Counted from the first letter of the stretch, positions 8,960 through 12,175 are shown. The stretch: DNA of 23,496 nucleotides from Candidatus Micrarchaeota archaeon (GCA_038046605.1 JBBSVW010000004.1:1-23496), one strand, 5' to 3'. Numbers and translations: made by a program. The notes: a model not told the origin generated them from the letters alone.

Positions 8960-9142
8960 TCAGATCACGAGCATCAATATGCCTATTAGCGCCATGAATA
9001 GCCCAAATAGGATGAACCCGCCCTGCACTATTGCAATTACCATCGCCCAAATGCCTGCGCTTTGGAACCAAAAATACCAGCTTCCAGCTACGACAAGAAG
9101 TCCAATTAGGAGTGATATTATCCCCGGCTTACTAATTGCCAT
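8960..9142 (-). CDS. Small two-TM membrane protein
   Basis: 60 aa, almost entirely hydrophobic, 9 bp downstream of the half-TBP gene. Confidence 0.75.
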   Translation of the reverse strand: MAISKPGIISLLIGLLVVAGSWYFWFQSAGIWAMVIAIVQGGFILFGLFMALIGILMLVI

Positions 9143-9151
9143 ATCGATCGC

Positions 9152-9448
9152 CTAGTTTATGAAATCCTCCAAAAGTTCAACGGCCCTTTTAATGCTCTGC
9201 TCGATTTGCTTTTCACTCTTCGCCCCGGAGCATATGACCTTCCCGTTCTTGAACAAAAGAAGGGTTGTGCCAATCTCCTTTAGGCGCATGATGGCCCCCG
9301 GGAACTGCTCAGGCTCGTATTCGACGTTGTCGACTTCCATTGCAATATTGAAAAGGTCCAATTCGACCTCCAAATTGGCTGAAGCCACGATGTTTTCGAC
9401 CTTAAAGCCCATGTTAATTTTATGATGCTTCTTCTTTGCCTTCTTCAT
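9152..9448 (-). CDS. Single-repeat (half) TATA-box-binding protein, 98 aa
   Basis: One full TBP repeat: KVENIVAS, YEPEQFPG, LLLFKNGKVICSGAKS; no second repeat on either side. Confidence 0.9.
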   Translation of the reverse strand: MKKAKKKHHKINMGFKVENIVASANLEVELDLFNIAMEVDNVEYEPEQFPGAIMRLKEIGTTLLLFKNGKVICSGAKSEKQIEQSIKRAVELLEDFIN

Positions 9449-9476
9449 TATTGTTTCGCCCCTTGCCTTTTACCGG

Positions 9477-9508
9477 CTTTATAAATTTAACGATTTCCCT
9501 TTATAAAT
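9477..9508 (-). promoter_or_regulatory. Tandem palindromic TATA boxes upstream of the half-TBP gene
   Basis: CTTTATAAAT at 9477-9486 and 9499-9508, 22-bp period; core TTTATAAA is self-complementary. Confidence 0.65.
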
Positions 9509-9565
9509 AAGCGTCTTGGGGGCACCTTAGGTTCCCCCGCTACCCTTGGAAGCATCCCCCTCCTA
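9509..9565 (+). repeat. Intergenic repeat, copy 1
   Basis: AAGCGTCTTGGGGG (14/14) and CCGCTACCCTTGGAAGCAWCCCCCTCCTA (28/29) shared with 10431-10484. Confidence 0.9.
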
Positions 9566-9701
9566 TTTTTGGCTGCGAATCAAAAAAGTCCCCGTCCTGT
9601 TGTTGCCCACTGCCCCCCTATTTAGCTCGCGAATCAATTGTTGCTAGCGCTAATACTTCTTTTGTTTTTTCCTCCGTTTCTACCCTCTAATTTGTCCCTA
9701 A

Positions 9702-10430: not shown

Positions 10431-10484
10431 AAGCGTCTTGGGGGAGAGGACTCCTCCGCTACCCTTGGAAGCAACCCCCTCCTA
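10431..10484 (+). repeat. Intergenic repeat, copy 2
   Basis: Direct repeat of 9509-9565 with a different central hairpin. Confidence 0.9.
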
Positions 10485-10701: not shown

Positions 10702-10977
10702 ATGAAACGGTCGCATGGCAAATATGCCGGGAAGAGCAGGAACCTGAAAAGCAAGGGCAGGGTTGCAATCACATCCCAATTGCGCACATTCACACCCGGT
10801 GAAAAGGTCCGCATAGATATAAACCCAAGGTTCGCCTCGGGCCTTCCGCACCTTAGATTCAACAAGCGCGCTGGGCAAGTTGTTGGCATGCAAGGCCACG
10901 CGGTAGTGATTAAATTCAACGACATAAACAAGGAAAAAATCCTTGTCATTTCAGGCGCGCACCTTGTAAAAACCTAG
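10702..10977 (+). CDS. rpl21e: 50S ribosomal protein L21e
   Basis: MKRSHG, GEKVRIDINP, GLPHLRFN, AHL motifs; conserved synteny with rpoF and DUF655. Confidence 0.95.
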   Translation: MKRSHGKYAGKSRNLKSKGRVAITSQLRTFTPGEKVRIDINPRFASGLPHLRFNKRAGQVVGMQGHAVVIKFNDINKEKILVISGAHLVKT

Positions 10978-11002
10978 CTCAAAATATTATTTGGTGATAT
11001 TC

Positions 11003-11332
11003 ATGAAAGTCATTGAGGAAAAGCCGATTTCTTACGCCCACGCACGCGATCTTCTTGCCAAGCGCAAAAAGGATTCCGAGCTTGGCTATGAGCAGCAAAA
11101 CACCCTTGACCATCTTGAAAAGTTCGCAAAGCTAACGGAGGCGGAAAGCGAAAAGCTTGCAAAGGAATTGGCCGAACTCAACATCCTTTCCGATAAGCAG
11201 GTAATGGAGCTGGTAAACAACCTTCCCTCCAAGGAGGACCTTGTCAAGACCATCCTCTCAAAGGAAAAGCTCGAATTCAATGCCGAGCAAATCAAGGAAA
11301 TCACCAAGATAGTGAAGAAATTCGCAAAATGA
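11003..11332 (+). CDS. rpoF: RNA polymerase subunit Rpo4 (F)
   Basis: ELGYEQQNTLDHLEKFAKL, ELVNNLP motifs; GGTGA SD at 10993-10997; synteny. Confidence 0.93.
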   Translation: MKVIEEKPISYAHARDLLAKRKKDSELGYEQQNTLDHLEKFAKLTEAESEKLAKELAELNILSDKQVMELVNNLPSKEDLVKTILSKEKLEFNAEQIKEITKIVKKFAK

Positions 11333-11497: not shown

Positions 11498-12175
11498 ATG
11501 TTTCGCAAGGAAGAGCACGCACTTGTTTTGGATTACCTGCCCCACGGGAAGGCGGGCGAGGGCAAGCAAGAGCCAACCGCGCAGGTCATGGGTGATGCCT
11601 ACTTCACCCTTCTTGAAGTTGTGCTAAAACCCGGCATAGCAGTTGCCCCTTTCGAGCGCGTTTACATCGGAAGGGAAGTGCGCGACAAGGTCGAGCGCAT
11701 CAAGCTTCGCCTGACCTACAAGGACCTAACCAATGTCGCCCAGCAGGAGGCGGAATTGGCAATTAGAAAAATCCTCCAAGCCCACGAGCAGGAATTCATC
11801 GGCTTCCTCAACCGTGCCGGCAGCATAAATATCCGCATCCATTCCCTTGAGCTTTTGCCGGGCCTGGGCAAGAAGAATCTTGAGGCGTTCCTATCGGAGC
11901 GCGAAAAAGTGCCCTTCAAGGGCTATGAGGACCTCAACGACCGCCTTCCGCACCTCCAGAAAATCGAGGAAATTATCCTGCACCGCGTCATACTGGAATT
12001 AAAGGCGGAGGAAAAATACTATTTGTTCGTGAAGATCCCCCCCCGCGATGAAGAGGAAGGGGAATTCCACCGCGAAGGAGGGCGGGGAGGTTTCCACCAC
12101 TCCGGCGCAAGGGACTACCCAAGCGGCCGGGATGGCTACTACGGAAGGCGCGATTATAACGATCGGCGCTACTAG
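11498..12175 (+). CDS. DUF655 family putative nucleic-acid-binding protein with a low-complexity C-terminal tail
   Basis: EEHALVLDYLPHG, FTLLE, RVYIG, RIHSLELLPGLGKK, KYYLFV; synteny with rpl21e-rpoF. Confidence 0.92.
   Translation: MFRKEEHALVLDYLPHGKAGEGKQEPTAQVMGDAYFTLLEVVLKPGIAVAPFERVYIGREVRDKVERIKLRLTYKDLTNVAQQEAELAIRKILQAHEQEFIGFLNRAGSINIRIHSLELLPGLGKKNLEAFLSEREKVPFKGYEDLNDRLPHLQKIEEIILHRVILELKAEEKYYLFVKIPPRDEEEGEFHREGGRGGFHHSGARDYPSGRDGYYGRRDYNDRRY

Follow-up and report, generated by a model that had tools for sequence, protein, structure and literature searches.

How does an archaeon start transcription with half of a TATA-binding protein? TBP is regarded as universally two-lobed in archaea and eukaryotes, and its descent from a one-lobe, homodimeric ancestor is a textbook inference, one that to our knowledge has never been testable on a natural protein. 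The gene that we describe here, from a Candidatus Micrarchaeota archaeon, encodes a single TBP repeat and then stops; we call its product a half-TBP. It lies in a window (the whole stretch of DNA analyzed, 23,496 nucleotides; GCA_038046605.1 JBBSVW010000004.1:1-23496) that belongs to an assembly of 1.64 Mb in 106 contigs, 90.7% complete. We argue, with a probability of roughly 0.78, that this 98-aa protein is the organism's sole TBP and its general transcription initiation factor, and that it works most likely as a symmetric homodimer.

What, exactly, does the gene contain? Its parts and its nearest downstream neighbor are these:

9152..9448, minus strand: coding sequence of the single-repeat TBP, 98 aa, from ATG to TAG, with the stop codon at 9152-9154
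9161..9406, minus strand: the single TBP repeat, S1-H1-S2-S3-S4-S5-H2, from the PF00352 match (profile positions 2-85 of 85)
9413..9448, minus strand: Lys-rich N-terminal arm, residues 1-12, MKKAKKKHHKIN, from orthologue comparison and the AF2 model
8960..9142, minus strand: hydrophobic 60-aa ORF, unrelated to TBP and without a Pfam family, 9 bases downstream of the TBP stop

Pfam PF00352 matches the protein in one stretch only (residues 15-96; 98.6 bits, E 1.8e-28), well past the chance level and above the curated cut-off of 22.9 that marks membership in the TBP family. All 10 NCBIfam matches are to whole-TBP models, each covering only one half of the profile, and all of them, at 60-88 bits, fall below cut-offs of 181-347. 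The two tandem repeats of a canonical TBP are absent, the frame ending just past the repeat. Sequence, fold and locus place the protein in the TBP family, yet it lacks the two-repeat architecture. The original prediction had described exactly one TBP repeat in 98 aa, the motifs KKAKKKHHK, ENIV, EYEPE, QFPG, LLF and GAKS, and a stop followed after 9 bp by an unrelated gene; the list of ORFs and the single PF00352 stretch bear all of this out, the motifs are all present in the ORF, and the next ORF begins at 9142. The stop is TAG, and the 60-aa ORF that follows lies in the same reading frame; no signs of read-through were seen. Orthologues of the half-TBP have the same end point, and conservation of the downstream ORF is confined to family f1. 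The basic arm varies among orthologues in length and sequence, carrying 3-12 Lys or Arg residues (5 or more at 18 of 21 loci of the order) and 0-3 acidic ones; in other families, the basic tails are shorter and may sit at either end.

Half of a gene invites the suspicion that the other half was lost on the way to the database, through a truncated or frameshifted gene call or through misassembly. Logan contigs speak directly to this. Those of run X2 are identical to the window over 9041-9562, and those of run X3, from a different study, are identical over 9079-9390 and 9423-9689, in neither case with an indel. Because contigs from two studies match without any difference, and because they span the stop codon and both flanks, a misassembly or a hidden, frameshifted second half is excluded. 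The relatives tell the same story: the 22 listed stop-to-stop frames of order genomes are 97-182 aa long, and the frames at 21 order loci contain a single TBP domain apiece, with 0-13 residues left between it and the stop. With synonymous sites saturated in a conserved protein as well (see below), we reject the artifact reading as vanishingly improbable.

If the gene is whole, might its missing partner be encoded elsewhere? PF00352 has one match in the assembly, the 98-aa ORF itself. A six-frame search (hmmsearch --max) with an order HMM, built from the 109 homologues of at most 135 aa among 120 listed, likewise found no second TBP in the assembly, so neither model yields a full-length TBP or a second half in this genome. 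The next match, C55:25758-25991 at E 0.15, was considered as a decayed second repeat and rejected, as it falls in a non-coding frame and no more TBP pieces turned up in any frame. Taking this genome alone, a second TBP gene could conceivably sit inside a gap of the assembly, with its 106 contigs and 90.7% completeness.

The relatives widen the view. The best-matching database proteins, among the 120 listed, are named Candidatus Micrarchaeota or Micrarchaeia, with two Norongarragalinales. Our sample of the order comprises 41 genomes from 11 families, of which 37 have a TBP-domain match and 34 exactly one; not one of the 41 searched has a two-repeat TBP. G002 carries two single-repeat genes on two contigs, and G014 and G026 each have one extra match, sub-threshold at 19 bits and inside a long unrelated frame. 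In four genomes, the domain was found neither by profile nor with the 98-aa protein as query. We read these four as assembly gaps because the neighboring DUF655 gene is also absent in three of them and because the stored locus of the fourth ends about 370 bases past DUF655, which we take to be a contig end.

Across the class (121 genomes, one of them, G111, unpublished and counted only as one tally row), 116 genomes have a TBP match and 56 have exactly one by hand count of the table. Two genomes of family f18 assembled as one contig each (G127 and G137) hold one TBP repeat only. In families f12, f17, f20, f21, f22 and f25, two matches lie side by side within one frame of about 190-220 aa, an ordinary fused TBP, and f14, part of f18 and f16 have two or three separate single-repeat genes. 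Some of these arrangements deserve mention in their own right. G094, G114, G097, G121 and others of f14/f18 (L054-L071, L200-L205) each have two separate single-repeat genes, one paralogue clade sitting on a long branch (0.72; support 100/99), and judged by sequence, the pair looks like a two-gene heterodimeric TBP. Family f16 has up to three single-repeat paralogues (G065, L072-L074 and L210-L212; G075, L026 and L075), only one of which occupies the chromosomal slot described next; these may be a one-lobe counterpart of haloarchaeal TBP multiplicity. Finally, P0121, a 283-aa protein on a contig of 989 bases, has three TBP repeats in a row, to which the order HMM gives 104, 120 and 103 bits; it may be a TBP built of three repeats, or else its contig may be partial or chimeric.

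Absence of a second TBP is one thing; being the TBP is another, and here the position of the gene is informative. On the opposite strand, three neighbors mark the locus:

10702..10977, plus strand: gene for ribosomal protein L21e, the divergent neighbor that marks the TBP locus (Pfam L21e, synteny)
10991..11332, plus strand: gene for RNA polymerase subunit Rpo4/F, Rpb4 family (Pfam RNA_pol_Rpb4, synteny)
11498..12175, plus strand: DUF655 gene of the same conserved cluster (Pfam DUF655, 178 bits, synteny)

L21e, RpoF or both adjoin the half-TBP gene at 20 of 21 order loci; the sole exception, L016, ends before it would reach them and has the family's other neighbors. Beyond the order, we compared 8-kb regions from a further 14 genomes. 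Families f12, f15, f17, f21, f22 and f25 have their fused TBPs in the same divergent L21e-RpoF-DUF655 slot (with RpoF undetected in f25), and the single-repeat genes of f15 and f16 lie there too; those of f18 stand beside a rearranged cluster. Genomes with several half genes (G094, G097 and G065) keep one copy in the slot and the extra copies elsewhere, and in G114, neither copy adjoins the cluster. Sharing its slot with fused TBPs in sister families, the half-TBP gene is TBP's positional orthologue and not an extra gene. Between the TBP gene and L21e lies a separate curiosity, an intergenic dispersed repeat of about 30-35 bases (window positions 9533-9565 and 10456-10484) that flanks two small membrane-protein ORFs. 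The assembly has about six copies (also in C86, C49, C79 and C5); contig depth over the repeat is up three- to four-fold, and several contigs end there.

Selection has plainly kept this protein. We aligned 104 sequences, the window protein and 103 of 109 short homologues, leaving out six that were partial, began with a residue other than Met or had an odd C terminus. Forty-six columns are invariant, and identity to the window protein is 77-93%; the L21e next door is 37-55% identical between families. Over an 83-codon core at the 21 order loci, synonymous p-distances to the window's genome (G000) are 0.62-1.0, and non-synonymous ones are 0.02-0.16. The ratio dN/dS is 0.016 for G000-G001 and 0.014 for G000-G005, the two pairs with G000 for which dS is finite; dS is saturated in 131 of all 210 pairs, and the median ratio in the other 79 is 0.07. 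The half-TBP is thus under strong purifying selection (dN/dS about 0.015 within the genus), so the survey of orthologues leaves no sign of the neutral decay that had been named as a danger to the idea.

Does the protein have the shape of a TBP lobe? The AF2 model (mean pLDDT 88.5, with residues 1-6 disordered at pLDDT under 50) has strands at 15-18, 21-25, 42-44, 52-56, 61-65 and 70-74 and helices at 32-38 and 79-96, and together with Foldseek, it gives the S1-H1-S2-S3-S4-S5-H2 fold of a canonical TBP repeat. Foldseek's 44 matches with E no higher than 0.001 are TBP chains without exception, led by 2z8u and 1mp9 (TM 0.74-0.76, rmsd 0.9-1.1 Å). The two repeats of Methanocaldococcus jannaschii TBP (2z8u) score 71.5 and 63.4 bits against the 98-aa protein, and those of Sulfolobus acidocaldarius TBP (1mp9) score 66.3 and 61.2 bits; identity to each of these repeats is roughly one-half of the HMMER-aligned columns as read by eye, and Foldseek puts identity to archaeal TBPs at 39-42%. 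Residues N19, F49, F66, S74-G75 and E45/E47 align with the same columns in both repeats of both structures and are invariant in the 104 sequences. We take the Asn of S1, the two intercalating Phe and the Thr/Ser-Gly of S5 to be DNA contacts and the acidic stirrup to be the TFB contact, as the structural literature on TBP has it. The half-TBP has the whole set, DNA-face residues and stirrup (YEPEQFPG) alike.

Canonical archaeal TBPs (2z8u from M. jannaschii, 1mp9 from S. acidocaldarius, 1ais/1pcz from Pyrococcus woesei) have two PF00352 repeats in about 180-190 aa. The half-TBP resembles them in its fold, its motifs, its L21e-RpoF-DUF655 slot (shared with sister families) and the single TFB gene that accompanies it; it differs in having one repeat, a Lys-rich N-terminal arm and NCBIfam whole-TBP scores below cut-off. 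With only one repeat per chain, a saddle needs two chains, and such a saddle would be exactly symmetric.

The homodimer prediction, run on the protein alone, scores 0.64, and the best of three controls scores 0.02. Of 30 proteins whose solved structures are pairs of one chain, 20 reach the mark that we use for pairing; among 23 solved as single chains, 1 does. Contacts agree between runs to at least 84%, and the pLDDT of the partner is at least 84. The predicted interface comprises residues 10-28, 71-73 and 79-97, with S1 antiparallel to S1' (20 with 20, 21 with 19, 22 with 18). In canonical TBP, S1-S1' is the contact between the two repeats. Passing the mark speaks for compatibility rather than for binding, and the score may mirror likeness to the intramolecular pseudo-dimer of TBPs already solved. 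With that understood, the proposal that a single repeat forms a symmetric homodimeric saddle gains support from conservation, from the lack of a second repeat in the assembly and from a model that beats its controls.

What would such a saddle sit on? Two putative boxes lie upstream of the gene:

9478..9485, unstranded: palindromic TATA-like box TTTATAAA, putative, -37 to -30 from the ATG
9500..9507, unstranded: second TTTATAAA box, putative, -59 to -52 from the ATG

These are the only two such octamers in the window, and both lie upstream of the half-TBP; two or more occurred in 26 of 100 shuffles, so the count alone is not significant. Genome-wide, upstream of crude gene calls, the TATA-like hexamers TTTAAA (146 against 19.7 expected) and TTTATA (107 against 15.9) are the most enriched words, and AT-only hexamers peak 26-30 bases before the predicted ATG, with a maximum at -28, a peak that fits TBP-dependent, mostly leaderless promoters. 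The assembly has one TFB gene, placed at C3:16057-16605, and it is canonical, with two cyclin repeats in a frame of 301 aa. In an EM motif search, the TATA core of G000 is flatter, with A about equal to T at each position, than that of G123 (400 kb), which has a fused TBP; the strand-polarity index is 0.16 in G000 and 0.97 in G123, a comparison that we set aside as evidence and that rests for G123 on only 93 regions and 77 AT-only octamers and for both on crude starts and differing G+C (46.8% versus 55.8%). In the relevant passages of PMC7289017, the orientation of the archaeal TBP-TFB-DNA complex depends on the contact between TFB and the BRE, and an exactly symmetric TBP is mechanistically compatible with orientation set in this way.

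Putting these pieces together, we infer the following mechanism for dimerization, DNA binding and TFB recruitment. Two identical chains would pair through their first β strands (residues 15-24), which would run antiparallel around a two-fold axis close to Ile20, with helix 2 assisting, and so rebuild the ten-stranded saddle of the fused, two-repeat TBP. Each chain would bring N19, F49, F66 and the Ser-Gly of GKVICSGAKS to the DNA face, along with one acidic stirrup formed by E45 and E47. The dimer would bind TATA-like, AT-rich boxes that precede mostly leaderless genes by about 26-30 bp, the Lys-rich arm probably adding non-specific affinity for DNA. A single TFB would then settle on one of the two equivalent stirrups, and direction would come from its contact with the BRE, not from TBP.

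There are other ways to make sense of a lone repeat, and the evidence bears on them unequally. One might imagine that the half-TBP is one-half of an obligate heterodimer, with a strongly diverged TBP-fold protein from another part of the genome as its partner. Such pairing seems to occur in families f14 and f18: their two separate single-repeat genes, one of them long-branched, show that the class has two-gene TBPs, and a partner too divergent for sequence profiles is conceivable here as well. The diverged f14/f18 paralogues, however, still score 87-100 bits with the order HMM, so a comparable partner would have shown up; in G000, nothing ranks above the match at E 0.15 in its non-coding frame, and 34 of 41 order genomes have exactly one match. 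We consider a heterodimer unlikely. It is also conceivable that the repeat works alone, as a monomeric nucleic-acid binder with some other role, while TFB recognizes promoters by itself. Single TBP-fold domains do bind duplex nucleic acid in other settings, according to the pertinent sections of PMC3597702 and PMC7221094, and the 98-aa protein has a faint match (E 0.14) to DUF3378, the TBP-like domain of RNase HIII. That match is well under cut-off, at 12.7 against 27 bits, and a protein that shares about 50% identity with each of the two repeats of genuine TBPs, with its DNA-face and stirrup motifs kept, its gene in the position of TBP and TATA-like boxes enriched at promoter distance in its genome, is a poor candidate for such a role, which we regard as quite improbable.

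The original prediction itself had pictured the half-TBP as an alternative initiation factor or a TBP competitor. In its strongest form, this would mean that a canonical two-repeat TBP is missing from the assemblies and that the half-TBP modulates or poisons it. The assembly is, after all, somewhat short of complete, and a precedent exists in halobacterial TbpA, a single-domain protein that coexists with full TBPs and is dispensable, as the sections of PMC3597702 devoted to it report. What stands against this idea is that no canonical TBP appears in the genome or in the 40 order relatives searched, that the two one-contig f18 genomes hold a single repeat only, that the gene occupies the TBP slot and that purifying selection on it is extreme. 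With no canonical TBP found and the gene in the positional TBP locus, a general TBP is the better reading, the competitor being very improbable indeed, and this part of the prediction is not supported. Bidirectional initiation, which the prediction also raised, is conceivable.

How does the half-TBP compare with single TBP domains already on record? The prediction held that such proteins had been noted only sporadically, which agrees with the relevant parts of PMC3597702 and PMC7221094 (Ravarani et al.), the two papers in which single-lobe TBPs come up. TbpA (Brindefalk et al. 2013, PMC3597702, in its section on this protein) is a single TBP domain that clusters with true TBP domains and is found beside full-length TBPs. 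The half-TBP resembles it in being a single repeat, but no full TBP was found in its genome or order, its gene is an orthologue at the TBP locus, and its constraint is strong. The same paper lists, in its Table 3, monopartite TBP-domain proteins of Thermococcales (for example, P. furiosus NP_578195, 96 aa), which occur beside a normal TBP, have a function described there as not known and are distant from TBP (for example, 14 positives in a local alignment of 25 residues). Like these proteins, which run to about 95 aa and are predicted to fold as TBP does, the half-TBP stands alone; unlike them, it scores 98.6 bits on the TBP model. RNase HIII's N-terminal domain (DUF3378), described in the pertinent part of PMC7221094 as a single TBP fold that binds duplex nucleic acid, differs in being part of a bacterial nuclease. 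In the passages concerned, a comparative paper on DPANN archaea (PMC8407392) merely counts TBP as present, and a paper on poxviruses (PMC12917281) uses “monopartite” for a hypothetical ancestor. Within the full-text literature that we searched, mostly journals outside subscription, we came across no paper that describes an archaeal clade whose sole, locus-orthologous TBP has one repeat.

Is the half-TBP, then, what came before duplication or what came after? We excised repeats with the order HMM, aligned them on 83 match columns and built three trees: FastTree on 178 rows, FastTree on 228 rows and LG+C20 on 88 rows picked by hand after the FastTree tree had been inspected. The 50 rows added in the 228-row set are from 25 non-Micrarchaeota loci (44 of 80 loci were processed, and 19 labeled Micrarchaeota were left out). 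All three trees agree in the overall picture. In the 88-row tree, 11 other archaeal lineages have their N repeats united in one clade (95/91), the outcome that a single ancient duplication predicts; these outgroups are drawn from Thermoplasmata, Methanomassiliicoccales, Methanomicrobia, Methanosarcinales, Thermococci, Methanofastidiosum, DHVE2, Aenigmatarchaeota and Woesearchaeota. The repeats of Micrarchaeota and Iainarchaeota, whether single, N or C, form one group apart from the N and C repeats of the outgroups, on a split supported at 100/99.

Inside this group, an N repeat and a C repeat from one lineage come out as sisters (f20/f21, 99/84; Iainarchaeota, 100/96). Nowhere is this clearer than in the fused genes of f15, whose N and C repeats pair as sisters (100/95), nest among the single-repeat genes of the same family (99/93) and occupy the same slot. 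A topology that sets all 30 N repeats against all 30 C repeats is rejected, with lnL 81.9 lower and p-AU 0.00026, for groups that were named after the first tree was seen and that are also the textbook expectation. In the outgroups, the N and C repeats of a gene are 41-55% identical to each other. The corresponding figure spans 47-87% in the fused genes of sister lineages (f12, 70-73%; G074 of f15, 84%; P0127, 87%; f22, 54-65%) and is 48-62% in Iainarchaeota. From these alignments and trees, we lean toward an ancestor of Micrarchaeota and Iainarchaeota that had a one-repeat TBP, later duplicated several times. The pattern suggests that the copies stayed separate in f14/f18 and were fused in f15, f12/f17, f20/f21, f22/f25 and Iainarchaeota. 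Concerted evolution within fused genes could imitate part of this pattern of re-duplication but does not account for genomes with only one repeat.

A bolder idea is that the one-repeat TBP is the surviving pre-duplication form, in which case the root of the TBP repeat tree would separate the Micrarchaeota/Iainarchaeota repeats from those, N and C alike, of all other archaea. The 100/99 split is compatible with this, monophyly of outgroup C repeats is not rejected (p-AU 0.417), and identities of the half repeat to outgroup N and C repeats favor neither consistently, the tree being a three-way split. Against it, N and C repeats of the ordinary kind occur in the other DPANN lineages sampled, Aenigmatarchaeota and Woesearchaeota, and the tree lacks a root and has 83 columns only; we think the idea quite improbable. 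If it were true, this lineage would still be using the homodimeric ancestor of TBP, and the two-lobed protein would have been re-invented several times independently.

The trees also contain some oddities. P0122 and P0123 are fused TBPs, on contigs of about 1.2-1.3 kb, whose N repeat nests among the single-repeat genes of the order; the C repeat of P0122 groups with those of f22 and f17, and that of P0123 groups with those of Iainarchaeota. Each either carries a genuinely fused foreign repeat or is a chimera assembled across the conserved EYEPEQFPG region. L094/P0136 is titled Methanobacteriota (and P0136 elsewhere Euryarchaeota), and its fused TBP groups with the Micrarchaeota/Iainarchaeota repeats, not with euryarchaeal ones; the nearest locus to L094 (83% identity) is titled Micrarchaeota, and the label of the MAG may be wrong.

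What the half-TBP means goes beyond one small gene. An entire order and about one-half of the sampled class appear to run all of their transcription on a one-lobe TBP encoded at the TBP locus, and this lineage therefore offers a natural test of how TBP arose. The class has three architectures side by side (a sole half gene, two half genes and the fused gene), and this natural series lets one ask what is gained by fusion and by asymmetry. An exactly symmetric dimer would, in addition, be a test of whether promoter polarity in archaea can come from the TFB-BRE contact alone. Micrarchaeota have also been grown in co-culture. And because the half-TBP is small and easily expressed, the key questions lie within ordinary biochemistry.
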